This document shows, piece by piece, positions 5,355 to 28,313 of a stretch of DNA of 59,302 bases. The notes below the pieces were generated by a model. That model was not told where the DNA came from, did not search any database, and saw only the letters and a program-made list of their open reading frames with translations. The position numbers and the translations under genes are program-made. Origin of the DNA: a virus. Lineage: Duplodnaviria > Caudoviricetes. The stretch is taken from the IMG/VR virus record IMGVR_UViG_3300025889_000130, positions 1-59,302 of that record. The stretch is one strand, 5' to 3'. How positions within the stretch are numbered: the first letter of the stretch is position 1; each line of letters starts with the position of its first letter.

Positions 5355-5371
5355 ATTGTATGTGTTATTCG

Positions 5372-5403: not shown

Positions 5404-5409
5404 AATTCA

Positions 5410-10319: not shown

Positions 10320-10361
10320 AAAAAATCTTGACCTCCGTCGATTTTCTGTCATTCTGGAGTC

Positions 10362-11106: not shown

Positions 11107-11108
11107 TA

Positions 11109-11510
11109 ATGAAGACAATCAAAGAAATAGTATCCGAGACCATTGAGTATATTAAGTCAACACCAAAGGCTTACGATACGGAAAAAGGCCAATGTCTATA
11201 CACCAAAATTATTGATGGCAAAAAATGTCATTGTGCAGTCGGGCGTTGTTTGCTGGAAGATTTTCAGCAAGAAGATTGGGAGCATAATGGATTCGGAATC
11301 CAATCTTTTACAAAAGAAAATCCAGAAATGCCACTAGATTCGATTCTAAAAGAAGAATATAGAGGCCATGGTCGTTATTTCTGGGAGGACTTGCAAGACC
11401 TTCACGATGATGTAGATAACTTATACTTCGAGGAAAATGAGCAGGGAGGTCGGGATTTGACTAAAAAAGGCCACATCTATGCGGAGTCAATTAATCTCGA
11501 ATATTCTTGA
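11109..11510 (+). CDS. conserved-looking phage hypothetical protein
   Basis: C.Y...DG..CAVG.CL...LQ.LHD pattern. Confidence 0.65.
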   Translation: MKTIKEIVSETIEYIKSTPKAYDTEKGQCLYTKIIDGKKCHCAVGRCLLEDFQQEDWEHNGFGIQSFTKENPEMPLDSILKEEYRGHGRYFWEDLQDLHDDVDNLYFEENEQGGRDLTKKGHIYAESINLEYS

Positions 11511-12353: not shown

Positions 12354-12968
12354 TTAACTTTTTCTCCTACAATAACTATCAGTTTGACTATGGCAGTTAG
12401 GGCATAAGAACCTTAAGTTTTCCAATCGGTTATCAAAATTATCCCCATTAATATGATCCAAGTGCAAAGAAAGTTTTTTGTTGTTCCATTCTGTTATTCC
12501 GCAAGATTCACACTTGTATGTCTTTAAGTTATATTTAAGAATTTTCTTTTTTAAGTTGCCTGTGCCTAATAAACCATTTTTAACAAAAGCTTCTTCAATA
12601 GGTATCTCATTAGCCTTAGCTGTTAAGTGAGCGCCTTTGCCATGAGCTTTCCCAGCAAAATGACCAGTATCAATATCAAGCTCTTTAATCCTTGCATGAA
12701 AAGTTCTATAATTCCCCCCAGATGGATGAACGCCGAACTTCTTTAATGCTTCTCTAATTGAATTGCTATTTTTAACAATCTCAATAAATTCTTTGTCACT
12801 AATTTTAAAATTTTTATTTCGTCCTTTTAATTTTGATTTATTAACTTTACCATGATACCAATCACGAACAGTCGTCCTTGGCACATTAATCATCTTGGAT
12901 ATCTCAGTAACAGTATAGCCTTGATTCTTTAACTTAATAACTTTATTGTATAATTCTTCTTTTGCCAT
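12354..12968 (-). CDS. HNH endonuclease with N-terminal HTH
   Basis: HTH (TVTEISKMINVPRTTVRDW); CESC...LHLDHINGD..DNRLENLRFLCPNCHSQT. Confidence 0.9.
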   Translation of the reverse strand: MAKEELYNKVIKLKNQGYTVTEISKMINVPRTTVRDWYHGKVNKSKLKGRNKNFKISDKEFIEIVKNSNSIREALKKFGVHPSGGNYRTFHARIKELDIDTGHFAGKAHGKGAHLTAKANEIPIEEAFVKNGLLGTGNLKKKILKYNLKTYKCESCGITEWNNKKLSLHLDHINGDNFDNRLENLRFLCPNCHSQTDSYCRRKS

Positions 12969-13090: not shown

Positions 13091-13330
13091 TTTTTACCAC
13101 CATCAAATAAACAAATAATCAAATAAATAAATAATACAGTATAGTATAAGATATATGATAAGAAAAACATAAGAAAATATATTAATTAAAAATGTTTTTA
13201 AAAAATTAAGACCAATAGCGTTTTGGCACGCTGGCCGCTGCCCGCCCCGTGCCAATCTGCAAGAAAAAAGTTTTTTGATTTTTTGGCAAAAAGAGTTGAC
13301 TTCACCGCCATTTTCCCCATTATGGAATAC

Positions 13331-13729
13331 ATGATTAACCAACCTTACCTTTCCTTCCCAGCCCAAATTCAACGGGGCAATCTATCTAACGTCTTCCTGC
13401 CAAACAAGCCGTTCAACGTGTATATCGTTCGCGCCCGCTACGACAACCGAGATGCATTCGTTGGCTGCTCCTATTCTCCTGTGGCTCGCTGCAAAACTCT
13501 GGGTTACGCCATTTTGAAGGCAAAAGAATTGGCTGAAAAGCTGTATGACGATTACAATGAAATCGACATGGATGACCCGCACATCGAAATCCGCTTCCAC
13601 CCTGACCACAAATTTCCTGTTAGTAAATCTCAGAAAAAGCGTGAAATGTGGGCTGGAGCTGTTGTTTCGGGCAGCGGCAAAGTTAGCCTTATCCCTCCAA
13701 TGTCAGGAGACGAAGGAATCCCATTTTAA
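13331..13729 (+). CDS. hypothetical early protein (leaderless, MINQPY)
   Basis: TTGACT(13296)-N16-CATTAT, with ATG 7 nt later. Confidence 0.7.
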   Translation: MINQPYLSFPAQIQRGNLSNVFLPNKPFNVYIVRARYDNRDAFVGCSYSPVARCKTLGYAILKAKELAEKLYDDYNEIDMDDPHIEIRFHPDHKFPVSKSQKKREMWAGAVVSGSGKVSLIPPMSGDEGIPF

Positions 13730-13765
13730 CCCAAACCAAAAACCATTACGTATTCGGAGGATAAC

Positions 13766-14017
13766 ATGAAAACATTATTAACAATTATTACAAATTCTGG
13801 TTACATGACCCATGACCAACTCAAAGAAGTGAAGGAGGCATTTCCGAATATGCAAGTCGTTCTCCTTTGGGGGCAGAGGGCAAGGCAAATGGTTGCGGTG
13901 AAGTATGCAGAGGGGATGATAGCGGAAGGTGAAGAGGAGGGTGACTACATTCGCTCAGTCTTCTTTGATGTCGCCACATATGACAAGCTTGTCGATGTCT
14001 TCAACATCTGCGGCTAA
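13766..14017 (+). CDS. hypothetical protein
   Basis: GGAGGA RBS before the ATG. Confidence 0.65.
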   Translation: MKTLLTIITNSGYMTHDQLKEVKEAFPNMQVVLLWGQRARQMVAVKYAEGMIAEGEEEGDYIRSVFFDVATYDKLVDVFNICG

Positions 14018-14162
14018 TGGATTGGGGAATATTCCCCAATCTTCCCGTAGTGTTTTGGCACGCTGCCCGCTGCCCGCCCCGTGCCAATTTGCAAGAAAAA
14101 AGTTTTTTGATTTTTTGCGAAAAAGTTGTTGACCTAAAAGGATTTTCTGTCATTATTGGAGC

Positions 14163-14936
14163 ATGATTAACTTACTAAGCGACCCTTCAAAGATGCCCTG
14201 CAAGGGCTTTAACATTCCAGCAATGAAATTCTGCCCCGCTGCCAAGCTGGTCATGAACCTCTACAAAAAAGCGAAAAAAGAGTTGTCAAAGCTCATTTGC
14301 TCTTCGTGCTATGCTTGTAAGGGGATGTATTTGTTCCCCAACGTTCGGGACTCGTTGCAAAAAAAGGCTGAATTTGTCTTGCAATCTATTCGGGAAGACA
14401 ACGGGGACACGTTTGTCAAAGAGATGTGCGACCAAATTGAAAAAGCTTACTTCAAGAAAGGCGAAAAGAAAAAGCTGAAGAATCTAGACACGAATCTTTT
14501 TCGAGTCCATGATTCAGGCGACCTTTTCAACCCTGCCTATATTGATTGCTGGGTTAGGATTGCGAAGAATTTTCCAACCATTAACTTCTGGGTTCCAACT
14601 CGCGAACACGTTCGGGAAGAACAACTTCCCCACCTGCGCAAACTTGCGGAACTTCCCAATGTTGTTGTTCGCCCTTCCGCATTGGAACTGGATGAACCTG
14701 CGCCACAAGTCGAAGGCCTCGACGGAGGCACCGCAGTTTATACCGATGAAGCCAAGGCCAAGGCCGATGGACACATGATTTGCCCCGCCACCATTCACGC
14801 CCATCGCCTGGGAAGGAAGGGTTGGAAGGCACTGCCACAAAAGGAGCGAGCAAGGTTGGCGAGTTGTGCTGGTAACAACTGCACTGCCTGCTTTCTTAAA
14901 TGTTCAAAAAAACCAAAAGCCTATATGGCTCATTAA
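14163..14936 (+). CDS. GP88-family protein, copy 1
   Basis: SKMPC..FNIPA...C, CSSCYACKGMY, FRVHDSGD, FWVPTRE, NVVVRPSA and C-terminal CP...C..C..C motifs. Confidence 0.8.
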   Translation: MINLLSDPSKMPCKGFNIPAMKFCPAAKLVMNLYKKAKKELSKLICSSCYACKGMYLFPNVRDSLQKKAEFVLQSIREDNGDTFVKEMCDQIEKAYFKKGEKKKLKNLDTNLFRVHDSGDLFNPAYIDCWVRIAKNFPTINFWVPTREHVREEQLPHLRKLAELPNVVVRPSALELDEPAPQVEGLDGGTAVYTDEAKAKADGHMICPATIHAHRLGRKGWKALPQKERARLASCAGNNCTACFLKCSKKPKAYMAH

Positions 14937-15133
14937 AAAAGAATACAAATGCTACTAGGAGTCCTACTTATATGTTTTATCATAGGAGCCTCTTTTCTTT
15001 AGGCTCTACGGTTCGCGTGCTAATTTTTGGCACGCTAGCCGCTGCCCGCCCCGTGCCAACCTTACCGAGAAAAAACTTTCATTATCTTTCAAAAAGCATT
15101 GACATTAACAATTTTTTCTACATCATTAAACCC

Positions 15134-15466
15134 ATGATTAAAATTCAAAATTTAGAGTTCCGCCGAACCAAAACCCTTCACGACAATCCAAAAATTTACT
15201 GGGAAATTGTCAAATGGGATAAAATGAAATTAGATGGTGAGGAAAAGGAGTATTGTTTCAGCCTCGCCATTTGGGATAAGAATGATGAGGGTTGGGAACT
15301 TCGTTTTGTTGGTTCAAGGCCATTTGAACTTGACGGCATGGGAATTTTTTGGGAACTTGCCACCTTTGGACAAAAGTATTTAGATGCACTTTTTGATTTG
15401 ACAGAATCTTATCCTAATGTAGAATATGGCAATTATTATCAAGACAAGGTAAAAAATGAAAAATAA
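15134..15466 (+). CDS. hypothetical early protein (leaderless, MIKIQN)
   Basis: TTGACA(15099)-N16-CATCAT, with ATG 7 nt later. Confidence 0.7.
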   Translation: MIKIQNLEFRRTKTLHDNPKIYWEIVKWDKMKLDGEEKEYCFSLAIWDKNDEGWELRFVGSRPFELDGMGIFWELATFGQKYLDALFDLTESYPNVEYGNYYQDKVKNEK

Positions 15467-15677
15467 TTTTTATAGAGCAGTTGATAGAGATGGCAAGATG
15501 CCTGTCTTATGTAGCAAGGAATATGATATTCCAGAAACACATCCTTATTTTGTAAGATACAAAAACAACAAACCTGTTTCTTATCGTGGTACAGAAGAAA
15601 TTATATTTGAAAATGGAAAAGTTTATGATTATTCAATCAATGAATTTATTTATCCTGACAACTTATTAAAAGAATAA
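15456..15677 (+). CDS. hypothetical protein
   Basis: Overlaps the stop of the upstream gene. Confidence 0.55.
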   Translation: MKNNFYRAVDRDGKMPVLCSKEYDIPETHPYFVRYKNNKPVSYRGTEEIIFENGKVYDYSINEFIYPDNLLKE

Positions 15678-15875
15678 AATGACAATACAAGAAATTGAAA
15701 AAGATGTCCCACCTCATGTTGATGGGAAAAATCGTCGACAACTAATTGATCACCTTTTGGATGAAATGAACTCTGACGGGATGGCAAAACTTCTTGCTCT
15801 TGGCAAGCTGAAAATTCTTTGCCCAAAAAGAAAATAGTTGTTGACAAAACATTAAAAATTAACATACTACAAACC

Positions 15876-16106
15876 ATGAAACGCATATTCAAACTACCAG
15901 TATCTTGGACATCAATCGGAACAATGGAGATAAATGCTTCCAGCCTAGAAGAGGCTATTGCAATAGCAGAGGACGAACTTACGGGGCTTCCAGAAGATAG
16001 CGAATATCTAGAAGGGTCATTTGAAGTAAATGTTGATCTTATCGACGAAGTGAAAGCGGCGGTAGGAGAAGAAAACTTAGCCAACAATGCGATATTAAAC
16101 ATTTGA
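15876..16106 (+). CDS. hypothetical acidic protein (leaderless)
   Basis: TTGACA(15841)-N16-CATACT, with ATG 7 nt later. Confidence 0.7.
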   Translation: MKRIFKLPVSWTSIGTMEINASSLEEAIAIAEDELTGLPEDSEYLEGSFEVNVDLIDEVKAAVGEENLANNAILNI

Positions 16107-16138
16107 CAAAAACATAAAAATCAACAAACTAATAGACT

Positions 16139-16366
16139 ATGAACATTATCAAAAAAATCACTGACTTCTTCACCCCTAAGATGAACCTTGTTTATCAAAG
16201 CAAAAATGGAGACATTGACCTATACAAAGTTAATGCTTTTCATTACAAAAACAAGTTCGGCAACAAAAAGCTCCGCAAGGAAAACATTGGCATCCGCACT
16301 TGGTGTTACAACCGCAAAGGGTATCGTTCTTTTAGGTACGAGGGTATTCTTAGCTTGTCTAAATAA
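16139..16366 (+). CDS. hypothetical protein with WYL-like C-terminal pattern
   Basis: C..R..YRSFR..GI pattern; has its own promoter. Confidence 0.55.
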   Translation: MNIIKKITDFFTPKMNLVYQSKNGDIDLYKVNAFHYKNKFGNKKLRKENIGIRTWCYNRKGYRSFRYEGILSLSK

Positions 16367-16537
16367 TTTTGTTCGGTTATTCATGTTGCCCCGTTGAGAG
16401 CTTGTTGACTTGGTTCTCAACGGGGTTTTTTGGCACGCCAGCGGCTGCCCGCCCCGTGCCAATTTTTATCGTAAAAAATTTTTAATTTTCTGCAAAATTA
16501 ACTTGACCGCACGAAAAAAATCGCCATACTAGTAAGT

Positions 16538-16654
16538 ATGAAAATTAAGGTAAGAATTAAACATGGGATTTGGACGAAGTCCCGCCCACATAAAGTTAAG
16601 AAAAATCTTCTCCCAAGGGAACAAAAACACAAAAAAAGATTTGACACTGAGTAA
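16538..16654 (+). CDS. 38-aa basic peptide (leaderless)
   Basis: TTGACC(16503)-N16-CATACT, with ATG 7 nt later; MKIKVRIKHGIWTKSRPHKVKK... Confidence 0.5.
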   Translation: MKIKVRIKHGIWTKSRPHKVKKNLLPREQKHKKRFDTE

Positions 16655-16703
16655 AAAATCTATTTAATTAAACCTGATTATTAACCTAAAAACTGATAAA
16701 GCT

Positions 16704-17474
16704 ATGAAAACACTAAACATTGACATCTGCGGTTCTGACCGCACCCAAGCCACCCTCGAAGAAGTTTATGCGGTTCAAACGCCACAAAAGACCGATACAT
16801 GGACTCCTATCAGTCACAAGCTACTCATTGAGCAAACCAAAGAAAAGCTGGATGCAAACGGCTTTAACATCATTGCCGAAAATCACAATCTTGCCCGATT
16901 TGGCCAGCGTTATTTTGGCCTCATGCAGGTGCAAGATCGCAACGCTCCTGAAAATCCAGATCGTGCGACTGTGATTGGTTTGCGTAATGGGCATGACAAG
17001 TGCTTTCCTGCTGGTATTATGGCAGGGGATGCCCCATTTGTATGCAGCAACCTTGTTTTCAACAACGAAATCGTCATCGCTCGCCGCCATACGAAAAACA
17101 TCGACAATGAAAACATCGCTGGCAACATTTTCCACAAAGTTGCTAACGCCATCGGCCAACTTCGGGAATCCTGGCAAAGTCAGGAAAAGAGGGTAAACGC
17201 TTACAAAAGCTATGACCTCAGTTCCAATAGTGAGGCCAATGATTTAATCATTAAGGCATATCAAAATGGTGCTTGCTCCAAAACTCAGATCGCTGACATC
17301 GTGGATCAATGGAACACCCCGAATCACAACGAGTTCCTTGACCGCAACCTCTATTCTCTATACAATTCCTTTTCGGAAGTCTGGAAAGGAAACCTGGGAC
17401 TGCTCCCGAATCGTTCTACCCAACTCCACGCCTTGTTCGACGGCGTAGCTGAAGCCGAACTGGTCGAGGCATAA
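16704..17474 (+). CDS. DUF932-family protein
   Basis: GLRNGHDK, AG...FVCSNL and RRHT motifs; C-terminal LYSLYNSFSE. Confidence 0.8.
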   Translation: MKTLNIDICGSDRTQATLEEVYAVQTPQKTDTWTPISHKLLIEQTKEKLDANGFNIIAENHNLARFGQRYFGLMQVQDRNAPENPDRATVIGLRNGHDKCFPAGIMAGDAPFVCSNLVFNNEIVIARRHTKNIDNENIAGNIFHKVANAIGQLRESWQSQEKRVNAYKSYDLSSNSEANDLIIKAYQNGACSKTQIADIVDQWNTPNHNEFLDRNLYSLYNSFSEVWKGNLGLLPNRSTQLHALFDGVAEAELVEA

Positions 17475-17485
17475 AGTACCCCTAA

Positions 17486-17524
17486 TAGCCCCCGCCAAGG
17501 AAAAGGCCACCCTTGGCGGGGCTA
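17486..17524 (+). terminator. GC-rich hairpin before a dyad repeat
   Basis: TAGCCCCCGCCAAGG/CCTTGGCGGGGCTA stem. Confidence 0.6.
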
Positions 17525-17635
17525 AAAATTGGCACGCCAGCGGCTGCCCGCCCCGTGCCAACTTTACCACAAAAAAAATTTATTTTTTTTTGCAAAAAGC
17601 TTGACTTGACCCGATTTTCTGTCATTCTATAAAGC

Positions 17636-18205
17636 ATGATTAACCCATCTAACATAACTAAGTATCAACGTAACGATTATTGCTTACAGGAATTCTTGTT
17701 GTTCTGTATTTGCGTAACTGGAAAAAGGAGTGCAATTGAAAGCGTCAAGCTCGATGCCTTTCTTGATGACAACTTGTTTCCCATACCATTGAAACCTTTT
17801 CAGTTTATTAGGTTTCTCGACTCAATCGGTAAACTTGAGAGTCAACTGCAAAAGCATAGGATCTCACCCTATTCCCAAAGGCTCAAAAGTTTTCGTGCAG
17901 TTACTAAGCTAACAAATCTTGAACGAGTTGAAATAGAGGACTTGGTAACTATCCCAGGTATAGGACTAAAGACGGCAAGATTCTTTTTGTCTCACTCAAG
18001 AAAGAACTTTGATGAACCCGTCCTTGACACTCACATTTTGCGTTATTTAAGGAACAATGGGCATAACGCACCAAAGTCCACCCCACAAAACCCTGAGATA
18101 TACGCAAGGTTTGCCAAAATATTTAAAAATATTGCTAATAAGGCTAATAAGTCCGTCACCAAGCTTGACCTCGAAATCTGGAGGGAGTACAGCGGCTCAA
18201 CTTAA
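17636..18205 (+). CDS. HhH DNA glycosylase/AP lyase (8-oxoguanine glycosylase-like)
   Basis: LVTIPGIGLKTARFFL helix-hairpin-helix with catalytic K; VLDTHILRYL; LDLEIW. Confidence 0.8.
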   Translation: MINPSNITKYQRNDYCLQEFLLFCICVTGKRSAIESVKLDAFLDDNLFPIPLKPFQFIRFLDSIGKLESQLQKHRISPYSQRLKSFRAVTKLTNLERVEIEDLVTIPGIGLKTARFFLSHSRKNFDEPVLDTHILRYLRNNGHNAPKSTPQNPEIYARFAKIFKNIANKANKSVTKLDLEIWREYSGST

Positions 18206-18313
18206 GTGAGTTGGGGAATATTCCCCAATCGCAGGAGTTGGGGAATATTCCCCAATCAAAGTTTTTTAATTATTTTGGTTGACTTGAGCTAATTTTCTGT
18301 CATTCTGTAAAGC

Positions 18314-18727
18314 ATGATTAACTTATTACCCGCAGAGAAGCGAAAAGACCCAAGGTATCTTATCAATCACCTTAAGCCAGTAAAGGTTTACCGCAACCTT
18401 CACAAAAATTGTTATTCAGTTCAGCAAGATGGTTTAGTCAAAGGCCATTTCAAAGAATTAGCTATAAAAAACCCAAAGTTCCTAGTTCAAAGTATTGGCA
18501 GGGAACGAGTTCGCAGAACGCAATCCAAGAATGTCCATGCGTTTGTCATTGGTTACTTGGAAGACTTTGTTGGGCTTCGGGCAATAGCGGGAGAGTGTGT
18601 GACTTATAACCCCTATAAAAATGATTCATTCGTTTATCGGGACACTGGCAATCCAGTCAACAAAAGTAAGTATGCAGACTTTTTTTTCTCGACAGAGGGG
18701 AAAGCCATTGTTAAAGTAGAACGATAA
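18314..18727 (+). CDS. conserved phage hypothetical protein (leaderless)
   Basis: VYRNLHK..YSV, GRERV...SKNVHAFV.G and YNPYK motifs; promoter at 18279. Confidence 0.75.
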   Translation: MINLLPAEKRKDPRYLINHLKPVKVYRNLHKNCYSVQQDGLVKGHFKELAIKNPKFLVQSIGRERVRRTQSKNVHAFVIGYLEDFVGLRAIAGECVTYNPYKNDSFVYRDTGNPVNKSKYADFFFSTEGKAIVKVER

Positions 18728-18728
18728 A

Positions 18729-18920
18729 ATGAAATTTGATTATCCCAGACCACTTGAATTTTTCCACCCTGATTATGATGTCGCCTGTGGAGGCACAGAA
18801 GTACCAATGGTTAGCAAAGCAGGCACAGTGCTTTACGTGTGGAATAAGATAGACAAAGAATATGAATACTATCACTTTGAACATGATAGATTCTATCGAG
18901 AGTACGAAATTGAAATCTAA
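18729..18920 (+). CDS. hypothetical protein
   Basis: Coupled ORF (ACGGTEVP...LYVWN). Confidence 0.6.
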   Translation: MKFDYPRPLEFFHPDYDVACGGTEVPMVSKAGTVLYVWNKIDKEYEYYHFEHDRFYREYEIEI

Positions 18921-18931
18921 TATCAAACAAC

Positions 18932-19198
18932 ATGGAAAAATCATCACTCATTAACCTTATCTGCAAAAAAGACCACCTTGGAACCATGCTTCCGATTTCT
19001 AACGAGCCAGAATTTGATTCTGATACTGGAGAATGGGATTTGTGGTTTGCCTATGAAGACTTGCAAGACCCTGACCGCAATGACGATATGACTCATATTG
19101 GTTTTTCGTCCAAGCAAGCCGCTGAAAATTGCATTGGCGAACTTGTTACAATGCGTGGACAAAAAAGTCTCCAACTTGAAAAAGAGCTGTCTCTATAA
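18932..19198 (+). CDS. hypothetical protein
   Basis: ORF within the operon. Confidence 0.55.
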   Translation: MEKSSLINLICKKDHLGTMLPISNEPEFDSDTGEWDLWFAYEDLQDPDRNDDMTHIGFSSKQAAENCIGELVTMRGQKSLQLEKELSL

Positions 19199-19216
19199 CA
19201 ATAATTAAGAATCAAA

Positions 19217-19402
19217 ATGACTATCAAACTATTAGAAGATATTAAAGTTCTCCCGTATTACGAACTATTCAAAGCTGGCAATTACAAGGCGCACCTTGCT
19301 GTGAATCAACCCAACTGGCAAGAAGAGGGCTTAGTCTTTATTAGTAATGGAGCAACAGACTTGCTTCTTTCCAAGGATGATTATCAAATTGTTTCAAAAT
19401 AA
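19217..19402 (+). CDS. hypothetical protein
   Basis: ORF within the operon. Confidence 0.55.
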   Translation: MTIKLLEDIKVLPYYELFKAGNYKAHLAVNQPNWQEEGLVFISNGATDLLLSKDDYQIVSK

Positions 19403-19853
19403 AAATAATAACCAAAAATAAAAATGATTGTTGAAAAAGTAGTATATGGCTATATCGTCCAACGCTTTAAAGAGGACGGTGAATTTATTGAGCAAGATAA
19501 CTTTGTGGCCGATGGAGACGTCGCCTACGAAGACGAAGATGGAAATCCGCTGGATCATCTCGATCTTTGCAAATATTATCATACTTTTGATGTCAAATAA
19601 CCAAATAATAAATAATTAAATAACAAATAACTTTCGTTAGGTTAATCTGCCCCGTCGAGGTTTATGATGATCCTCGGCGGGGCTTTTTGGCACGCCAGCG
19701 GCTGCCCGCCCCGTGCCAACTTATATTTGCTAGCAAAAGTATTACAAAAGCTGCCCCCCTAAAAAAACACTTTTTCGCAAAAAAAAGTTTGACCACGAGC
19801 TTTTTTCTGTCAAACTAGGGGGACATTAAGATTAACCTGAACGAAAGAAAATT

Positions 19854-20033
19854 ATGTTATCAGTAAAACGCCACCCGAATCTTGACAACTGGTTTGAAGT
19901 CCGCATATTTGGAGAACTCATTGACCAATTTACGTCTGCCGTAAAAGCCATCCAGTTTGCTGAGAAAATTAAGAAAAAAGAAAGGTTTGATATTGTCCAT
20001 ATTGACCTGAAGCGTCAAGATGAAGAAAATTGA
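19854..20033 (+). CDS. 59-aa RHPNLDNW-family protein, paralog 1
   Basis: Translated by hand: MLSVKRHPNLDNWFEVRIFG...; follows the conserved leader. Confidence 0.75.
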   Translation: MLSVKRHPNLDNWFEVRIFGELIDQFTSAVKAIQFAEKIKKKERFDIVHIDLKRQDEEN

Positions 20034-20049
20034 ATCATAATTATTAAAA

Positions 20050-20403
20050 TTGAAAAAACAGATGACCACTATATACCAGCACACACCTCACTACACTATT
20101 ACCCCTTATTACGTTTACGCCGACATCGCAATCCAGGATGTAAAAAACAGGCTCGCCGCCGCAGAAATTCAAATTAGTGTAAGTGAACAACAAAACAGAA
20201 TTGACAACCCGATTGGCACAGGTCCTGGCGGGCGTGTAAGGTTGGGCGATGATATGCTCCCTTCAACTTACCTTATCAGCGTCAGAGATGAAGATGCAGA
20301 AAAAGCTCGGCGGATTCTTGTACATAATTTTGATTCTTTTTCAAGAGATAGGATTGTAAAAATTCTTGCTACTGATACAAAAAAAGATGAAAATTTGTTT
20401 TGA
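20050..20403 (+). CDS. hypothetical protein
   Basis: ORF in cassette. Confidence 0.55.
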   Translation: MKKQMTTIYQHTPHYTITPYYVYADIAIQDVKNRLAAAEIQISVSEQQNRIDNPIGTGPGGRVRLGDDMLPSTYLISVRDEDAEKARRILVHNFDSFSRDRIVKILATDTKKDENLF

Positions 20404-20456
20404 CAATTTAAAGTAATTAACCAGAATAAAACGCATTAACCTGAACTAAGAAAAAA

Positions 20457-20726
20457 ATGAATCAAGATTACGACTACCTTCAACTCCACCATGATGATTT
20501 CGGCCTTGTCGTAAAGGGCTATAAAGAGGATGGTTACCCGTCCCACTCCGTGCTTGCAGGGCAAACCCGCATTGACTATCTGAACACTTTCGACACTGAA
20601 GAGGAAGCTATTAAGGCGTACCCAGAACTCGCCCCAAAAGGCGAAACGCAATGGGGTTCGACCTGGGCGGACGCTCAGATTAAGGACGTTTCTTGGCTTC
20701 CTGATAGACCAGATTTGAGTTTGTAA
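20457..20726 (+). CDS. hypothetical protein
   Basis: Own promoter and ATTAACC leader; SVLAGQTRI motif. Confidence 0.65.
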   Translation: MNQDYDYLQLHHDDFGLVVKGYKEDGYPSHSVLAGQTRIDYLNTFDTEEEAIKAYPELAPKGETQWGSTWADAQIKDVSWLPDRPDLSL

Positions 20727-20728
20727 TG

Positions 20729-20861
20729 GGTTGATCTGCCTCGCCAGGGTTTGTGGTTATCCCCTGGCGGGGCTTCACTTTTCGCTTGTGGGCGGGAATA
20801 GGCTGATTACTGCGTAGCGGGGTCGGCCTCTCCGCTTACGGGCGGGGAGGGCTTCTTTATT
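20729..20861 (+). ncRNA. candidate structured RNA element, copy 1
   Basis: Three GC-rich hairpins; near-identical copy at 21974-22106 whose differences preserve pairing. Confidence 0.5.
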
Positions 20862-21031
20862 TTGGCACGCCAGCGGCTGCCCGCCCCGTGCCAACTCATA
20901 TTTGATAGCAAAAGTATTACAAAAGCTTCCCCAAAAAAAAAATCACTTTTTTGCAAAAAAAGCATTGACCAAAGAAGAAATTTCCCCATACTTATTTTTA
21001 TAACCTAAAGATTAACCTAATTAAAAAAACT

Positions 21032-21280
21032 ATGAAACACCTCTCACAAGCTCTCTCAGAACTCGGACTCTCACAAAATTGGTTCGATGAATTGAAATCG
21101 GAAGTTGAATCGGACAAAACATTTTCTGAAAATGGATTGCTTACCACTACAAGAGAAGATGTCGAAGATGAGTTTGTCCAACTCGATGTCCGTCTTGAAA
21201 AAATTGATGACAATGACGAAAGTTTTGTTGACATGGATGCAGTTTCTTCTACAATGGCAAACGTATTTAACCAAAATTAA
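21032..21280 (+). CDS. highly acidic small protein
   Basis: Promoter at 20965 plus leader; D/E-rich. Confidence 0.65.
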   Translation: MKHLSQALSELGLSQNWFDELKSEVESDKTFSENGLLTTTREDVEDEFVQLDVRLEKIDDNDESFVDMDAVSSTMANVFNQN

Positions 21281-21282
21281 AA

Positions 21283-21438
21283 ATGACAATCGAAACCCTC
21301 AATCTTATTATCGACCAAAACGCTGACGCTGCCCTTGCTGGCGACGAATCCGCAATTTACAACATACAATGGGCTGAAGAGCAGTTGACAAAATTGGCTT
21401 TCCTTAAAGTTCGTGAACTAGACCAAAAACAAAAATGA
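21283..21438 (+). CDS. 51-aa protein, tandem paralog of the next gene
   Basis: LNLIIDQNADAALAGDESA vs INLIFKQNSADAIAGNESA. Confidence 0.65.
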   Translation: MTIETLNLIIDQNADAALAGDESAIYNIQWAEEQLTKLAFLKVRELDQKQK

Positions 21439-21638
21439 GTAGACTTGAATCCATAAATCTTATTTTTAAGCAAAATAGTGCGGATGCTATTGCTGGAAAT
21501 GAATCCGCCTTTTCTAAAATCGAATTGGCTGCAGAGCAGTTGATAGAGTTAGGCCGTTTGAATAAATTAGCATGTCGGCATTTTAGAGAGTGTGCTCAAA
21601 TTAAAGCGGGAATATTTAAAAGCGATTTAGAAAAATGA
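21435..21638 (+). CDS. hypothetical protein, tandem paralog of the previous gene
   Basis: ATGA overlap and similarity to the upstream ORF. Confidence 0.65.
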   Translation: MSRLESINLIFKQNSADAIAGNESAFSKIELAAEQLIELGRLNKLACRHFRECAQIKAGIFKSDLEK

Positions 21639-21973
21639 ATATACTACAAAACATATTACTTGCTATTATCTTTGGCAATTTTGTTGTTGCCGCCGTGATG
21701 GTATTACTTTACATTCAATTTAGCATTGAGGATAAAAAAATGAAAAAAGAACTGGAAGAAATGTATGATGAGTATTATGGGCAAGATAAAAAATCTAATT
21801 AAGAAGGAGAATAAAATGAATCATTTAGTTATTATTGATAAGAAGACTTATTTTGAATATAGGCTTGGGAATCATTGTGGCAGTATGCCGAAGGCGCATT
21901 ACCCACAAGTTCAAGACGTTGTAAGTTATTTGAATAATTATTATTCTTTTGACACTCATGAGGTAATCTAATA

Positions 21974-22106
21974 GGTTAATCTGCCCCGCCAGGGTTTGTG
22001 GTTATCCCCTGGCGGGGCTTCACTTTTCGCTTGTGGGCGGGAATAGGCTGATTACTGCGTAGCGGGGTCGGCCTCTCCGCTTACGGGCGGAGAGGGCTTC
22101 TTTATT
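21974..22106 (+). ncRNA. candidate structured RNA element, copy 2
   Basis: Duplicate of 20729-20861. Confidence 0.5.
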
Positions 22107-22216
22107 TTGGCACGCCAGCGGCTGCCCGCCCCGTGCCAACTTTACCGCAAAAAAAAAATCACTTTTTCACAAAAAAAGGTATTGACTGCATAGCTTTTTC
22201 TGTCATACTGTAGGGC

Positions 22217-22990
22217 ATGATTAACCTACTGAGCAACCCATCCAAAATGCCCTGCAAGGGCTTTAACATTCCAGCAATGAAGTTCTGTCCAGCCGCCAAG
22301 TTAGTGATGAACCTCTGGAAAAAAGCATCCAAGGAACTTTCTAAGCTCATTTGTTCCTCTTGTTATGCTTGCAAGGGTATGTACCTTTTCCCCAGTGTTC
22401 GGGATTCTTTACAAAGTAAAGCTGATTTTCTCTTAAAATCTCTACGTGAAAACAACGGCGATGAATTTGTGGCGGAAATGTCCAAGCAAATTCAGTCCGC
22501 CTATTTTAAGAAGGGCGAAAAGAAAAAACTAAAGAATTGCGACACCAATTTTTTTCGTGTCCATGATTCGGGCGATTTATTCAACCCTGCATATATTGAT
22601 TGCTGGGTTAGGATTGCGAAGAATTTCCCAACCATTAACTTTTGGGTTCCAACCCGTGAACACGTTCGGGAGGAACAACTTCCCCACCTACGCAAACTTG
22701 CGGAACTTTCAAATGTTGTTGTCCGCCCTTCCGCATTGGAATTGGACGAACCTGCGCCACAAGTCGAAGGTCTTGACGGAGGCACAGCAGTTTATACCGA
22801 TGAAGCCAAGGCCAAGGCCGATGGACACATGATTTGCCCCGCCACCATCCACGCCCATCGCCTGGGAAGGAAGGGTTGGAAGGCACTGCCACAAAAGGAG
22901 CGAGCAAGGTTGGCGAGTTGTGCTGGTAACAACTGTACTGCCTGCTTTCTTAAATGTTCAAAAAAACCAAAAGCCTATATGGCTCATTAA
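22217..22990 (+). CDS. GP88-family protein, copy 2
   Basis: Same length as 14163..14936 and near-identical C-terminal half. Confidence 0.8.
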   Translation: MINLLSNPSKMPCKGFNIPAMKFCPAAKLVMNLWKKASKELSKLICSSCYACKGMYLFPSVRDSLQSKADFLLKSLRENNGDEFVAEMSKQIQSAYFKKGEKKKLKNCDTNFFRVHDSGDLFNPAYIDCWVRIAKNFPTINFWVPTREHVREEQLPHLRKLAELSNVVVRPSALELDEPAPQVEGLDGGTAVYTDEAKAKADGHMICPATIHAHRLGRKGWKALPQKERARLASCAGNNCTACFLKCSKKPKAYMAH

Positions 22991-23229
22991 AAAAGAATAC
23001 AAATGCTATCAGGAATCCTACTTATATGTTTTATCATAGGTGCCACCTTTCTTTAGTTCCTACGGTTCGCGTGCTAATTTTTGGCACGCTAGCCGCTGCC
23101 CGCCCCGTGCCAACTTTACCGAGAAAAAAAAATCACTTTTTTGCGTTTTTTTGCAAAAAAGGGGTTGACCTCACGCTTTTTTTTGTCATACTAGGGGAAC
23201 ATTAAGATTAACCCTAACAAAAGAAAACC

Positions 23230-23382
23230 ATGACAGAACAGCAAATCCAATACGAACTGACTTTAATTGATTGGCTTAACGCTCGCCTTGAAAAGTGTCT
23301 GCAAATGGACATGGATAACAGGAATGAGCTTATCAAGCTCAGTCAAGAATTAAAGGCAAAGTTCGTCGAAACCGAAGATTAA
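23230..23382 (+). CDS. 50-aa hypothetical protein
   Basis: Follows the promoter+leader module; MTEQQIQYEL... Confidence 0.65.
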   Translation: MTEQQIQYELTLIDWLNARLEKCLQMDMDNRNELIKLSQELKAKFVETED

Positions 23383-23463
23383 AAAAAATCACTTTTTTGC
23401 AAAAAAGATATTGACCGCAAGCGAATTTTCCCCATACTTACTTTTATAACCTCAAGATTAACC

Positions 23464-23712
23464 ATGACCATTCAAACACTAGCACACGCTGATTCCCTTG
23501 AACGCCTTTCTTTTTCTGATTTGAATTGGGAAGAATATGAAGCCTGCAAGGCTGGCCTTATTTACTACGAAGGCTTGCGGGACTACTTAGAAGCAAACTG
23601 CCCAGAAAACAAGGAAAAGATTTTGGACATCGAAGACACCATTTCAGCCCATTATACTGTCCTTGCTGACATCGTAGGCGGGGCAAAGGTAAATTATGAA
23701 TCTATTATCTAA
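23464..23712 (+). CDS. hypothetical protein
   Basis: Promoter at 23411; AGATTAACC directly before ATG. Confidence 0.65.
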   Translation: MTIQTLAHADSLERLSFSDLNWEEYEACKAGLIYYEGLRDYLEANCPENKEKILDIEDTISAHYTVLADIVGGAKVNYESII

Positions 23713-23876
23713 TGAGCTTAGAAAAATCAATTAAACATAAAAAAGAATATCGCAAGCCTTATTACAAATCAGGAAAATTCGACAAGACTTGTCGCCCAGG
23801 AGGTTCTTGCCCATATTGCAAATCAAATAGAAAACATAAACACAAAAAACAAAAGCTAATTTATAATTATGAATAA
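23712..23876 (+). CDS. 54-aa basic Cys-containing protein
   Basis: MSLEKSIKHKKEYRKPY...DKTCRPGGSCPYC; TAATG coupling to upstream gene. Confidence 0.65.
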   Translation: MSLEKSIKHKKEYRKPYYKSGKFDKTCRPGGSCPYCKSNRKHKHKKQKLIYNYE

Positions 23877-24200
23877 ATTATCAACACAACTAAATAAGTT
23901 TATTGCTAATAATAAAAAAAAGATTGCTCTTCATTATAAAGAAGCAAGGCGAAATACAATGACAGTCGAAGGTATGCTGTTTGCAAGTAAAGTAAATAAA
24001 AAATAATTTCTTATGGTTAATCTGCCCCGTCGAGGTTGATGGTGATCCTCGGCGGGGTTTTTTTGGCACGCCACGGGCTGCCCGCCCCGTGCCAACTTTA
24101 CCGCAAAAAAAAATTTATTTTTTTTCAAAAAAGTGTTGACCGAACGTTTTTTTCTGTCAAACTAGGGGAAGATTAAGATTAACCATAACGAAAGAAAAAG

Positions 24201-24332
24201 ATGAACATCCAAACCCTCGCCCAACTCTCCACTCAAGAACTTGCTATCCTGAACGGGTGGCATGATGACCAAGCCATGACTGGCAATGAAATTGACCAAA
24301 TGGTCGAGCAATTCCAAAAGGAGGACAAGTAA
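24201..24332 (+). CDS. 43-aa hypothetical protein
   Basis: Follows the leader module; TAATG coupled to the next ORF. Confidence 0.6.
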   Translation: MNIQTLAQLSTQELAILNGWHDDQAMTGNEIDQMVEQFQKEDK

Positions 24333-24526
24333 TGAAAGTCATTAGGACAATCAAAGTTGAAGGCATCAGCGGACACGGGAAAAACAGAATCCGTGAGCAT
24401 GGAACCGATTGGGACGTTCTGGCCGAAAGCGGTGAAAAAATGTTAATAGTGCCAAGCGGCCAAGACATCAGCGGCTGGTGGCGATGGATATTGAAACGTC
24501 AAGACCCACATTTTCGACAGGTGTAA
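24332..24526 (+). CDS. hypothetical protein
   Basis: GGAGG RBS; HGKNRIREHG..W motif. Confidence 0.65.
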   Translation: MKVIRTIKVEGISGHGKNRIREHGTDWDVLAESGEKMLIVPSGQDISGWWRWILKRQDPHFRQV

Positions 24527-24675
24527 GTTTTGCTAATTGGCACGCCACGGGCTGCCCGCCCCGTGCCAACTTTACCGCAAAAAAAAATTTATTTTTTTTC
24601 AAAAAAGTGTTGACCGAACGTTTTTTTCTGTCAAACTAGGGGAAGATTAAGATTAACCCAAACCAAAAAACCACT

Positions 24676-24909
24676 ATGACAAACCTTATCAAAGCTATCG
24701 TTCTCGCCGCTCCTGTTTCTTACCCTTACTCTATTGGGCAAGAAACAAGTTTTATCCTTTCAAATGCTGATTACAAAGTTGGCCAAGAAATTTCTTTCAA
24801 CAACGGCTTATCAATCAAAGTAACCGAGCTTCCAGTCATTGATGAGCAAGCCTACGAAGCAATGAAGTCTCGCCACATTGAAATTTCCCACCGCAACGGC
24901 GTAGAATAA
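24676..24909 (+). CDS. SHRNGVE-family protein, paralog 1
   Basis: Follows the leader module; C-terminus shared with 27446..27709. Confidence 0.7.
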   Translation: MTNLIKAIVLAAPVSYPYSIGQETSFILSNADYKVGQEISFNNGLSIKVTELPVIDEQAYEAMKSRHIEISHRNGVE

Positions 24910-25001
24910 AAAAATCACTTTTTCGCAAAAAAAGAGTTGACCGAACGTTTTTTTCTGTCAAGCTAGGGGAAGATTAAGATTAACCCAAACGAAAGAAAAC
25001 C

Positions 25002-25181
25002 ATGCTATCAGTAGAACGCCACCCAAACCTTGACAACTGGTTCGAAGTCCGTGCATTTGGAAAAATGCTCGACCAATTCACATCTGCCGTCAGAGCTATA
25101 CAATTCGCAAAGAAAATACAAAAACAAAAGAAAATTGATAGCATTTATATTAACATTAAGCGTGAATATGATGAAGATTGA
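25002..25181 (+). CDS. 59-aa RHPNLDNW-family protein, paralog 2
   Basis: MLSVERHPNLDNWFEVRAFG... Confidence 0.75.
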   Translation: MLSVERHPNLDNWFEVRAFGKMLDQFTSAVRAIQFAKKIQKQKKIDSIYINIKREYDED

Positions 25182-25374
25182 ATCGCCCTTTGTCCTTACT
25201 TCTTTGAACGAATACAATATCATTCTAAGAAAAGATAATCCATTTTATAAGCCAACAGGAAGGGATTTAATTCTGAGTATTGATGCAGTATTAGCAAACG
25301 AAGATAGATTGGAAGAAATTACTGATCAACTAGGCTTGCCAGAAAGTCAAGCAGTTTTTTTATTGCATGACTGA
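25168..25374 (+). CDS. hypothetical protein
   Basis: MMKIESPFVL..., overlapping the upstream stop. Confidence 0.5.
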   Translation: MMKIESPFVLTSLNEYNIILRKDNPFYKPTGRDLILSIDAVLANEDRLEEITDQLGLPESQAVFLLHD

Positions 25375-25519
25375 CAAAAGCTGGCACGCCAGCGGCTGCC
25401 CGCCCCGTGCCAATTTTACCACAAAAAAAAATTTATTTTTTTTACAAAAAGGGTTGACCTCACGCTTTTTTTTGTCATACTGGGGGAAGATTAAGATTAA
25501 CCCTAACGAAAGAAAAAAG

Positions 25520-25666
25520 ATGACCTTCGTTCAAAATCTCCAACTCAAAATTCGCCTCCAGAACAGCATTGCTAAAAGCAAGGCCGCCCTCGAAGAGATT
25601 AAGGCCGACATAGAGGCACAAAAGGCAGAGATAGCTCGCCTCAAAAAAATTCTCTCTGATATGTAA
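25520..25666 (+). CDS. 48-aa coiled-coil LQLKIRLQNSIAKS-family protein, paralog 1
   Basis: Follows the leader module. Confidence 0.75.
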   Translation: MTFVQNLQLKIRLQNSIAKSKAALEEIKADIEAQKAEIARLKKILSDM

Positions 25667-25703
25667 AAAGATTTGACGTTTACATAAATTTCCACATTCT
25701 CAT

Positions 25704-25925
25704 ATGTATAACCTGATATTGAAAATGATTACTATCAAACGCCACTCGAACCTCGACAACTGGATTAACCTTGCCATTAACGGCAAAGTTTTCAAGCAAC
25801 TGAATTCCCGCTCGAAAGCGGTTAAGATTGCTCACGCTATGGGCAAAATTAAGGGATTGAAGGTGCTTGACCTTGACGTTGGGGAAAGGCATCATGATGG
25901 CAAAACTATTTCAGTAAAATCATAA
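25704..25925 (+). CDS. RHSNLDNW-family protein, diverged paralog 3
   Basis: MITIKRHSNLDNWINLAING... Confidence 0.65.
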   Translation: MYNLILKMITIKRHSNLDNWINLAINGKVFKQLNSRSKAVKIAHAMGKIKGLKVLDLDVGERHHDGKTISVKS

Positions 25926-25943
25926 ACCTCACAAACGTAGTAC

Positions 25944-26150
25944 ATGGAATGGAGTAAAATCATGAATTTGAATCACGAACAAATTGCTTTTTTGCGAGAA
26001 ACCCTAGAAAAGAGAAAGGGTGGCGAATTGTACGCCAAGGAAACTCAAGACCCTATGTATGAGGCTTACCAGGAAGGGGTGATTGAAGAAATTGACGAAT
26101 TGCTCGACATTCTTGGGCCCCGCTCGACTGTTATCGTCACCCAGGGATAA
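25944..26150 (+). CDS. hypothetical protein
   Basis: ORF ends directly at an 18-bp palindrome. Confidence 0.55.
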   Translation: MEWSKIMNLNHEQIAFLRETLEKRKGGELYAKETQDPMYEAYQEGVIEEIDELLDILGPRSTVIVTQG

Positions 26151-26170
26151 TTGGGGAATATTCCCCAACC

Positions 26171-26317
26171 CGCCAAGCCACCCAAGCCAAGCTCCAAACT
26201 TTGCTTTCTGATAAAGACGAACTCGACATCGAGTTCGCCCTCAAGGATAGCATCATGAACCGCGCCATGATTAGCAGTCGTGTTCGTAAAATGAAACGTC
26301 AAGGCGATGAAGATTGA
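26171..26317 (+). pseudogene. 5'-truncated ORF remnant
   Basis: RQATQAKLQTLLSDKDELDIEFALKDSIMNRAMISSRVRKMKRQGDED* has no upstream start or promoter; 3' flank ATCGCCCTTTGT is shared with 25182. Confidence 0.45.
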
Positions 26318-26512
26318 ATCGCCCTTTGTACTCTGCCCCGTCGAGGTTTTTGAATTTTCTCGACGGGGCTTTTTTTGGCACGCCAGCGGCTGCCCGCCCC
26401 GTGCCAACTTTACCGAGAAAAAAATTTATTTTTTTTCAAAAAAGAGTTGACCGCATGCTTTTTTCTGTCAAACTAGGAGAAGATTAAGATTAACCATAAC
26501 GAAAAAACCACT

Positions 26513-26701
26513 ATGAAAAACGAAACAATCGAAAACCCACAAACCGAATCCGAATTCATGGCAGACTGCATGGAGGATTTGGTTTACTACGAAGAACTAT
26601 TAGCTCATGCGGGAAAGAATGGCTCTGATAACAACATGAGCGTCGAACACATCGAGGCGGCGATTGCCGATTTGAAATTTGTAATGGGCATTAACTATTA
26701 G
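26513..26701 (+). CDS. acidic hypothetical protein
   Basis: Follows the leader module. Confidence 0.65.
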   Translation: MKNETIENPQTESEFMADCMEDLVYYEELLAHAGKNGSDNNMSVEHIEAAIADLKFVMGINY

Positions 26702-26881
26702 ATTAGCTTTTTCGCAAAAAAGTTTTGCTAATTGGCACGGGGCGGGCAGCCGCTGGCGTGCCAACTTTACCGAGAAAAAAAAATCACTTTTTTGCATTTT
26801 TTCGCAAAAAAGGGGTTGACCTCACGCTTTTTTCTGTCAAACTAGGGGAAGATTAAGATTAACCCTAACGAAAGAAAAAAG

Positions 26882-27028
26882 ATGACCCTCGTCCAAAAGC
26901 TCCAACTCAAGATTCGCCTCCAGAACAGCATTGCCAAAAGTAAGGCCGCTCTTGAAGAGATTAAGGCAGAAATGGAGGCACAAAAGGCAGAGATAGCCTA
27001 CCTCAAAAAAATTCTCTCTGATATGTAA
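26882..27028 (+). CDS. LQLKIRLQNSIAKS-family protein, paralog 2
   Basis: MTLVQKLQLKIRLQNSIAKSKAALEEIKAEMEAQKAEIAYLKKILSDM. Confidence 0.75.
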   Translation: MTLVQKLQLKIRLQNSIAKSKAALEEIKAEMEAQKAEIAYLKKILSDM

Positions 27029-27090
27029 AAAAATTTGACATTTGCCTAAATTTCCACATTCTCATTGATATAACCTTAACCATAACCATT

Positions 27091-27270
27091 ATGAAAATCG
27101 AAAAACACGACGTAATTATCTACAAAGAAAAAATCTATCATGTCATCCAAGCCGATGCTGAAAATCTTATCGGTCGCCTTTACCGCACAAACAAACAATT
27201 CATAATTCCAACTTCTCAAGCTAAGAAGCACCCTTTCTTCCCTAACGGATTAACCTTCCTTAAACATTAA
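27091..27270 (+). CDS. 59-aa hypothetical protein
   Basis: Own promoter; MKIEKHDVIIYKEKIYHV... Confidence 0.6.
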   Translation: MKIEKHDVIIYKEKIYHVIQADAENLIGRLYRTNKQFIIPTSQAKKHPFFPNGLTFLKH

Positions 27271-27445
27271 CTTTTTCGCAAAAAAGTTTTGCTAATTGGC
27301 ACGCCAGCGGCTGCCCGCCCCGTGCCAACTTTACCGAGAAAAAAAAATTACTTTTTTGCGTTTTTTTGCAAAAAAGGGGTTGACCTCACGCTTTTTTTTT
27401 CCATACTAGGGGAAGATTAAGATTAACCCAAACGAAAGAAAAAAG

Positions 27446-28119: not shown

Positions 28120-28313
28120 TCAAGGTTATAGGATTGGGGAATATTCCCCAATCGCTGGGGTTGGGGAATATTCCCCAACTTATCTTTGCTTGTAAAAGTA
28201 TTTAAAAAGCCTCGCAAAAAAAAATCACTTTTTTGCAAAAAAGGTATTGACCAAACGCTTTTTTTTCCCATACTTAAGGATATTAAGATTAACCCTAACG
28301 AAAGAAAAACCAT

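Follow-up and report, generated by a model that had tools for sequence, protein, structure and literature searches.

A 33-bp dyad resembling two facing sigma-54-type half-sites, repeated before the early-type promoters of an uncultured phage

The window analyzed here is the whole of IMG/VR virus record IMGVR_UViG_3300025889_000130 (59,302 nucleotides), and it carries 15 copies of a 33-bp element, dyad A, between positions 13223 and 27328, each upstream of a TTGAC-type promoter. The dyad is a genuine and ancient element that is strongly constrained, and it is best described as two facing sigma-54-type half-sites that share one base, the central A/T. It is the overlapped local form, degenerate at −12, of a wider family of paired sigma-54-type sites that stand before phage early-type promoters. 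Members of the family occur across a broad set of uncultured phages from fresh and estuarine waters, in one and the same position: where one small-gene cassette has ended and ahead of the A/T-rich region upstream of the next TTGAC-type promoter. The anatomy of the dyad, its conservation, its relation to this family, and the shuffling of the cassettes can be read directly from the DNA. The explanation we favor, at about even odds (roughly 0.5), is that the sigma-54 holoenzyme of the host would bind the dyad and stay silent there, as a boundary, a roadblock, or a promoter-proximal architectural element of shuffling early cassettes.

Dyad A reads TTGGCACG-N6-GCWGC-N6-CGTGCCAA. Fourteen of the 15 copies match TTGGCACG-N17-CGTGCCAA exactly, and the copy at 25381, with CTGGCACG as its left arm, holds the sole mismatch in the window. 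The arm TTGGCACG occurs 29 times when both strands are counted, against 0.99 expected (standard deviation 1.07, maximum 4) from the 100 shuffles of the window by which chance level was estimated. A relaxed search of the window, allowing up to 4 substitutions, gave no extra copies and no alternative spacing. GG-N10-GC is satisfied on both strands of all 15 dyads (30 of 30 halves). The left N6 is CTGGCC, CTGCCC, CTAGCC (two copies), CCAGCG (nine), or CCACGG (two), while the right N6 is invariably CCGCCC and the centre GCTGC. The copies are the following:

13223..13255, dyad A copy 1, CTGGCC/CCGCCC; promoter −35 at 13296
14055..14087, copy 2, CTGCCC; single B palindrome (see following) at 14022-14039, 15 bp upstream; promoter at 14129
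15027..15059, copy 3, CTAGCC; promoter at 15099
16430..16462, copy 4, CCAGCG; abutting terminator hairpin at 16389-16431; promoter at 16503
17529..17561, copy 5; upstream terminator hairpin at 17488-17522; promoter at 17601; the orthologous junction of the relative G004 has a B-B pair
19687..19719, copy 6; terminator at 19649-19688; 69-bp linker with palindrome TTTGCTAGCAAA (19726-19737); promoter at 19789
20862..20894, copy 7; terminator at 20827-20861; 70-bp linker; promoter at 20965
22107..22139, copy 8; terminator at 22072-22106; promoter at 22182
23081..23113, copy 9, CTAGCC; promoter at 23165 (51 bp)
24063..24095, copy 10, CCACGG; terminator at 24024-24064; promoter at 24136
24537..24569, copy 11, CCACGG; promoter at 24610
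25381..25413, copy 12, left arm CTGGCACG; promoter at 25454
26375..26407, copy 13; terminator at 26335-26376; promoter at 26447
26732..26764, copy 14, core inverted; promoter at 26816
27296..27328, copy 15; promoter at 27380
13296..27407 (+), the 15 dyad-paired promoters, TTGAC(C/T/A)-N16-CA(T/A)(A/T/C)(C/A)T, mostly with TGT before the second hexamer

At 26732-26764 the 33-bp core is inverted relative to the other 14, and both flanks match the copy at 27296 and are not inverted, an arrangement compatible with flipping in situ between the inverted 8-bp arms. A preliminary description of this DNA had counted 15 double sites with GG-N10-GC on both strands, had noted that spacer variants alter only the free positions, and had seen G or C in place of the T before the −12 GC. 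All of this is borne out, and the five spacer variants that it named are all present. It had also placed a near-consensus site for integration host factor (IHF) beside the dyad, and this did not hold, as AATCACTTTTTTG follows only three of the 15 dyads (20862, 23081, and 26732). The IHF site was rejected, with the exact consensus WATCARNNNNTTR following none of the 15 dyads and occurring 8 times window-wide against 12.7 expected.

When all sources are combined (63 distinct dyads), the two N6 stretches can pair at 170 of 378 cells, against 183.8 expected. The lack of any excess indicates a site read by protein in duplex DNA and not a hairpin. Arm variants are one-sided, without compensatory changes, and Rfam gave no family match at the dyad. 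In the same set, the N6 positions are 81% G+C in surroundings of 32–40% GC.

The role known for sigma-54 is that of a host factor at regulated promoters of the host itself, and the extended consensus of its −24 element is YTGGCACGR, a consensus that the 29 of 30 window arms reading exactly TTGGCACG fit. For a quantitative comparison, a position weight matrix was made by hand count of the 42 intergenic-sense Escherichia coli chromatin immunoprecipitation motifs given in Table 1 of PMC4591121; it is E. coli-based and may not fit the phage host. At the −24 element, the order of variability of the dyad arms (positions 1, 7, and 8 free, with C>T at 7) matches that of the 42 counted motifs. Positions 3, 4, 14, 15, and 16 of the sigma-54 site are the ones presented as important and rarely deviating in the extract of PMC4591121. 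Solitary copies of TGGCACG at window positions 29118, 1560, 4029, and 27622 and in the related genome G001 lack a GC at the required spacing and were dismissed as chance. The best matrix match of the window lies elsewhere, at 3777-3793 (−), TTGGCATATTGATTGCA, 16.6 bits, antisense within rIIA, and may itself be due to chance.

Related phage DNA from 20 further sources also contains the dyad, with arms, centre, and 17-bp spacing kept and N6 varying. The exact arm pattern was found in 42 viral-contig stretches; those of ~40% GC have the centre GCWGC, and the high-GC stretches, which lack it, were set aside as chance hits. The related genomes G001 (162 kb, 96% complete) and G002 (99.8 kb) carry 7 and 5 dyads, respectively, and have the same order of rIIB, array, and structural module, with proteins only 26–51% identical to those of the window. 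A relaxed search collected 84 non-redundant phage-type dyads from 21 sources (the window and the 20 others). The GC is kept in 165 of their 168 half-sites, and the TGGCA core shows only 2 changes. Arm mismatches fall at position 1 (8), position 7 (10, all C>T), position 8 (4), position 2 (1), and position 4 (1), and positions 3, 5, and 6 are never altered. Across phages, 21 dyad positions are fixed and 12 vary freely, in a profile somewhat biased upward because the loci were found via exact copies. A scan for the full dyad in 185,579 bacterial species genomes returned just two matches, one by chance within coding sequence and the other in a phage-like contig of a metagenome-assembled genome (MAG). 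Hence, in its exact form the dyad is not a chromosomal motif.

The half-sites of the related dyads are closer to sigma-54 promoters than those of the window. In the promoter-facing half of 33 oriented non-window dyads, T14 is present in 22 and A17 in 27. When the better half of each of these other dyads is taken, the median score is 12.5 bits, and 12 of the 57 distinct ones equal or exceed the score of E. coli glnAp2 (14.45). For example, a half of the first dyad of G001 (6347, TTGGCACGGGATTTGCA) scores 19.1 bits, the highest value in that genome.

More distant relatives were recovered by scanning viral contigs for the flank of the conserved single site described below; most of the 46 hits were chance or coding, and only repeated high-scoring sites were taken further. 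This gave G005 (88 kb), G006 (10.5 kb), G007 (34.6 kb), G008, and G009. The first three share structural-module synteny with the window and G001, at 22–40% amino acid identity, and are therefore distant members of the same broad group. All five have clusters of canonical sigma-54-type sites, TTGGCAYRNNATTTGCW, scoring 16–22 bits, which in G005–G007 lie just upstream of the structural module. Matches of at least 16 bits number 13 in G006, 7 in G005, 4 in G007, 2 in G001, 1 each in G002 and the window, and none in G004. In G005 and G006, where this was measured, the canonical sites stand 17–53 bp upstream of TTGACA-N17-TATAAT or TAGAAT promoters. Some form face-to-face pairs with a gap of 2–3 bp (40182+/40202−, 41647+/41667−, and 42650+/42670− in G005; 8644+/8663− in G008; 5449+/5468− in G006), and others form tandem pairs 26–38 bp apart that point away from the promoter (2054/2081, 2767/2793, 3812/3850, and 4508/4534 in G006). 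The tandem sites of G006 run directly into hairpins, followed by T runs.

In these distant relatives, GG-N10-GC and TTGC are kept in each half, and the distance between halves is +2, +3, or that of a tandem, against −1 (the shared base) in the window. Recognition of each half by sigma-54 would predict such a changing distance, and a rigid dimer would not. The conserved geometry of the half-site, combined with the non-conserved distance between halves, thus favors sigma-54 recognition of each half. A palindrome, CTGCCATTTTGGCAG, is present 13 times in G006 (L168) and 11 times in G007, mostly as pairs 29 bp apart beyond the sigma-54-type sites. Its copies contain TGGCA and are followed by T runs, and they may be two-way terminators.

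A single site, TTGGCATG-N4-WTGCT, precedes a gene of the Hsp20 family in G001 (149624-149640, L057; 17.8 bits) and in G002 (48437-48453, L063; 18.6 bits). It ends 13–14 nucleotides before the ATG, so that a transcript started from it would be almost leaderless. The two Hsp20 orthologues are ~33% identical, and a search for further homologues found only these two. In E. coli, an upstream sigma-54-dependent promoter serves ibpB, according to the extract of PMC4316790. The likeness is that of a single sigma-54-type site directly upstream of an Hsp20-family gene; the difference is that the genes of G001 and G002 are phage-borne, with the predicted site 13–14 nucleotides before the start codon. Together, the conserved site and the ibpB promoter suggest that these phages infect sigma-54-bearing hosts and bring along sites for this factor. 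The only pointer to a host is one related phage-like contig assigned by binning to a Pseudomonadales MAG with an rpoN gene, such binning being weak evidence.

The dyads occupy a fixed place in a repeating unit made of terminator, dyad, A/T tract, promoter, and one to a few small open reading frames (ORFs). The intrinsic terminator of the preceding gene directly abuts seven of the 15 dyads. The promoter follows every dyad after a gap of 39–42 bp (10 copies), 51 bp (3), or 69–70 bp (2), and the interval consists of A/T tracts resembling an UP element. The window has 27 such promoters, 15 with a dyad, 2 with a pair of palindrome B, and 10 with neither. From their sequence, we infer that they are early promoters read by the main sigma factor (sigma-70) of the host. 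Their second hexamer starts with C (CATACT, CATTAT, CAAACT; for example, at 16503-16530 and 23165-23192) where T is usual, and the promoters of the distant relatives have a plain TATAAT or TAGAAT. Over 45 distinct junctions, the distances from dyad to −35 cluster at 11, 19, 30, 40, 50, 60, 70, 91, and 131 bp. The phasing amounts to R = 0.75 at a 10.0-bp period and 0.70 at 10.3 bp, values that are not independent and yield no usable p-values because cassettes and junctions copy one another. The clustering points to a face-of-helix relation or to insertions and deletions of whole A-tract units.

The 69–70-bp linkers hold an extra small palindrome, which in the window is TTTGCTAGCAAA (19726-19737 and 20901-20912) and in the relatives L008, L017, L026, L027, and L031 is TGTATGCA-N3-TGCATACA. 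It looks like a separate operator in a subset of the cassettes. Many dyads of L008, L009, L013, L022, L026, and L030 have beside them a GC-rich repeat of about 27 nucleotides, GGCTCTATCACTGGGCTGRCGGCCGA, and a degenerate form of this repeat occurs in relatives with 78% identical rIIB (L070, 15500-15560 and 17719-17770).

A second palindrome, B (TTGGGGAATATTCCCCAA), without sigma-54 likeness, can take the place of the dyad. It occurs mostly as tandem pairs with a 27-bp period, and a B pair as RNA can be folded into one long hairpin of −32 kcal/mol. In the window it is found at these positions:

18211..18255, tandem B-B pair (copies at 18211 and 18238), in the place of a dyad upstream of the promoter at 18279
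28134..28178, tandem B-B pair (copies at 28134 and 28161), upstream of the promoter at 28247
26151..26168, single B palindrome
14022..14039, single B palindrome

The closest relative of the window, G004, covers the same part of the genome and has the same cassettes in a different order; matched blocks are 70–92% identical in nucleotides overall, with 82–92% in the cassette region, and 66–75% is given for those of the structural module. Its B-bearing junctions retain the same gene end, terminator, and promoter as in the window. Because B is rare elsewhere, A is the older state and B a recent replacement.

In the explanation favored here, we infer both the binder and the effect of its binding. 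The host sigma-54 holoenzyme would already be there when the DNA enters and could form stable closed complexes without an activator. It would then occupy the dyads without productive transcription. The GC-rich −12 side lacking T, the absence of any activator gene seen, and the sites of relatives that face away from genes all fit such unproductive binding. The bound holoenzyme could act as a boundary or roadblock or could modulate the adjacent promoter, and titration of sigma-54 would be a possible side effect. As repeats of 33 bp and more, the dyads also supply homology for the loss, gain, and reordering of cassettes. A stronger version is tentative and less likely than not. In it, a whole group of uncultured phages would set arrays of high-affinity, non-melting RpoN sites, mirrored or in tandem (at least 15 per genome copy), before the promoters expressed first; these would capture holoenzyme at DNA entry, insulate the early cassettes, and drain sigma-54 from the stress responses of the host.

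Several observations weigh against sigma-54 as the binder. In the window, the halves that face the promoter score 7.3–12.1 bits and those that face away 4.8 bits, compared with 14.5 for glnAp2, 17.1 for pspA, and 16.4 for zraP of E. coli, and several chance sites in the AT-rich window reach 12–16.6 bits. The low scores result mainly from position 14. Of the E. coli intergenic sigma-54 sites in Table 1 of PMC4591121, 48 of 50 have T14, whereas the window halves never do (0 of 30) and those of other dyads do in 55 of 138 cases. Positions 12 and 13 are semi-conserved as C and G, yet G13 is found in 1 of 42 E. coli sites; sigma-54 leaves this C12-G13 unexplained, and the dyad can be read as four GCACG-like subsites. 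Nor does sigma-54 need perfect dyad symmetry. G004 lacks any dyad, has no sigma-54-like site above 12.9 bits, and instead carries 8 tandem B pairs (L151–L153) at orthologous array junctions. Hence, the role of dyad A can be filled, or dispensed with, by an unrelated palindrome, and the exchange of A for B fits a change of operator type at least as well as a sigma-54 role. Finally, neither a sigma-54 DNA-binding domain nor a true enhancer-binding protein was found in G000–G002 or G005–G009.

The sigma-54 interpretation of the preliminary description therefore stands in part. The pattern itself and its comparison with other phages uphold it, and the conservation of GG-N10-GC in homologous repeats, which it had suggested checking, is evident in the 165 of 168 halves that keep GC. 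The matrix scores, T14, the IHF site, and the replacement in G004 do not support it. As for the 17-bp spacing and central GC, on whose constancy it had relied, they are kept in the dyads of the 20 further sources, and the distance between halves changes in the distant relatives. The functions that it put forward (sponge, roadblock, or loading site) are candidates, the sponge being possible.

The main competitor, which we regard as distinctly possible though somewhat improbable, is that the dyad is the operator of another symmetric regulator, dimeric or tetrameric and encoded by phage or host, that activates or shuts off the adjacent early promoter from the same helix face, with a sigma-54 likeness that is partial, coincidental, or ancestral. 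The exact dyad symmetry, the tolerance of an inverted core at 26732, the phased distances to the −35 (with the reservation on copied junctions given above), and the missing T14 and low matrix scores of the window all speak for such an operator. The semi-conserved C12-G13-K14 gives GCACG-N3-CGKGC / GCMCG-N3-CGTGC, two tandem palindromes like the B-B pairs, and the wholesale swap of A for B-B at the orthologous junctions of G004 is the pattern expected of regulator/operator specificity types. However, conservation is centred on TGGCA and not on GCACG, and a rigid dimer leaves unexplained why GG-N10-GC is kept in each half of the distant relatives while distance, and even orientation, changes. 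No candidate regulator was found among 20 window proteins searched against Pfam (10 small ORFs at 7–11.5 kb and 10 in or next to the array), where the only DNA-binding family was a helix-turn-helix (HTH)–HNH endonuclease with no match in G001 or G002. In addition, 21 fixed bases that are identical across phages with 26–51% identical proteins better fit a conserved host factor than a fast-evolving phage regulator.

Two further explanations are improbable, the second a little more so. If the gene-facing half were a working sigma-54 promoter, with a second start, dependent on an active host enhancer-binding protein, ~80 nucleotides upstream of the sigma-70-type start and the mirrored half secondary, one would understand why that half is better in the relatives (the T14 and glnAp2 comparisons above) and why a single conserved site precedes hsp20 in G001 and G002. 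In the window, however, position 14 of the gene-facing half is G or C and the region that must melt is GC-rich, the second arm is as well conserved as the first, and neither an activator gene nor an upstream activator site was seen. The tandem sites of G006, which face away from genes and run straight into hairpins and T runs, also contradict it. The second would dispense with a specific protein reader, the dyad being a GC-rich palindromic repeat kept by gene conversion as recombination homology, selfish repeat, or read-through RNA hairpin. The near-identical window copies do point to recent homogenization, cassette joints coincide with the repeats, the RNA of the commonest copy folds at −17.6 kcal/mol, and palindrome B can substitute for the dyad. 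Yet 21 positions are fixed and 12 free across phages, the arms lack compensatory changes and N6 any excess of pairing, and Rfam gave no match. Little RNA would arrive at the seven copies that sit behind a terminator, and no recombinase was found in G000–G002.

The recombinase search covered tyrosine and serine families (PF00589 and PF00239) in G000, G001 (96% complete), and G002, and a recombination site of the lox, FRT, or att type was rejected because no cognate recombinase was found there. A PF00158 activator candidate was likewise rejected, its sole hits being a full-length RuvB homologue (AAA+ plus C-terminal winged helix). This homologue lies beside the dyad array in at least 4 dyad-bearing lineages (G001 4723-5670, which is L047 1402-2349; G002 10078-11130; L005; L015; L025), with none in the sampled window.

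Cassette shuffling is directly visible in assembled contigs. Contigs assembled from four other samples are broken at dyads. One joint, 13220 to 14053 with 13 shared letters, excises cassette 1 precisely between two dyads and was seen in two runs, from two studies. Other joints lie at or next to dyads or B sites; as these are assembly contigs, the weaker joints may be artefacts. The dyad joints, together with the reordering in G004, make these modules a functional analogue of the promoter-early stem-loop (PeSL) cassettes of T4-type phages. PeSLs are promoter plus stem-loop, with no added 33-bp dyad mentioned in the extracts of PMC4122927 and PMC2839356. The two systems share repeated terminator/early-promoter modules between small variable ORFs, and insertions, deletions, and reshuffling at repeats between close relatives. 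They differ in that this phage is not T4-type by its terminase, although rIIA and rIIB are present.

Dispersed operators, such as the KorB O_B sites of plasmid RK2, the conserved inverted repeats of phiC31, and the stoperators of L5, likewise consist of many copies of one short site scattered through an early or regulatory region, and some of these copies precede promoters by tens of bases. The dyad differs from these by its sigma-54-type half-site geometry and in that no cognate regulator gene was found. Its likeness to the sigma-54 sites of E. coli and Salmonella (PMC4591121; PMC3844500) consists of YTGGCACG at −24, GC ten bases on, and the pattern of tolerance, and sites in its relatives score as high as E. 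coli promoters or higher. The differences are the overlapping mirror pairs, their 15 copies upstream of sigma-70-type promoters in a phage, the window's lack of T before the GC, and the 81% GC of the variable positions. Transcriptionally inert sigma-54 sites are known in E. coli and Salmonella, and binding without transcription is a known property of sigma-54.

Literature searches and a string search with the arm sequence gave no earlier description of phages in which paired sigma-54-type sites form arrays. Should sigma-54 prove to be the binder, the phage would shape its earliest transcription via a host protein, needing no phage gene product, and might disable a host sigma factor. Hosts with rpoN could then be predicted for uncultured phages from the sequence of such sites. 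If the binder is another regulator, the interchange of A and B at 82–92% identity would be a clean natural replacement of operator type across a whole promoter array. In both cases, the dyad shows where cassettes break and rejoin in a shuffling system that lies outside the T4 group.

The record (59.3 kb) has an estimated completeness of ~39%. The GC content of the window is ~32%, rising to ~40% across 13–28 kb, and its genes include rIIA, rIIB, DNA ligase, the large terminase, and a structural module. The terminase is less than 28% identical to that of any cultured phage, and its best matches are in Bacillus and Clostridium phages, none of them T4-like. Searches of a phage collection gave no cultured match to the DNA of window 19000-24000, in near and distant modes, and no match to the portal protein of G005. 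The public runs that carry window sequence are freshwater and estuary metagenomes, with no RNA run among those carrying 19000-27400.

Genes of the array include two of the GP88 family, a DUF932 gene, an Ogg-like glycosylase, and an L5-gp82-like gene. The last is not tied to the dyad, as none of the 80 loci returned when it was used as an anchor carries one. The HTH-HNH endonuclease, with N-terminal helix-turn-helix domains, is encoded at 12354-12968 (−) between tRNA-Leu (12266) and tRNA-Met (13013), in a stretch that immediately precedes the array and has no match in G004. The two GP88-family genes (PF17338), at 14163-14936 and 22217-22990, lie in separate cassettes, and both match one gene of G004, at 89% and 83% nucleotide identity, respectively.

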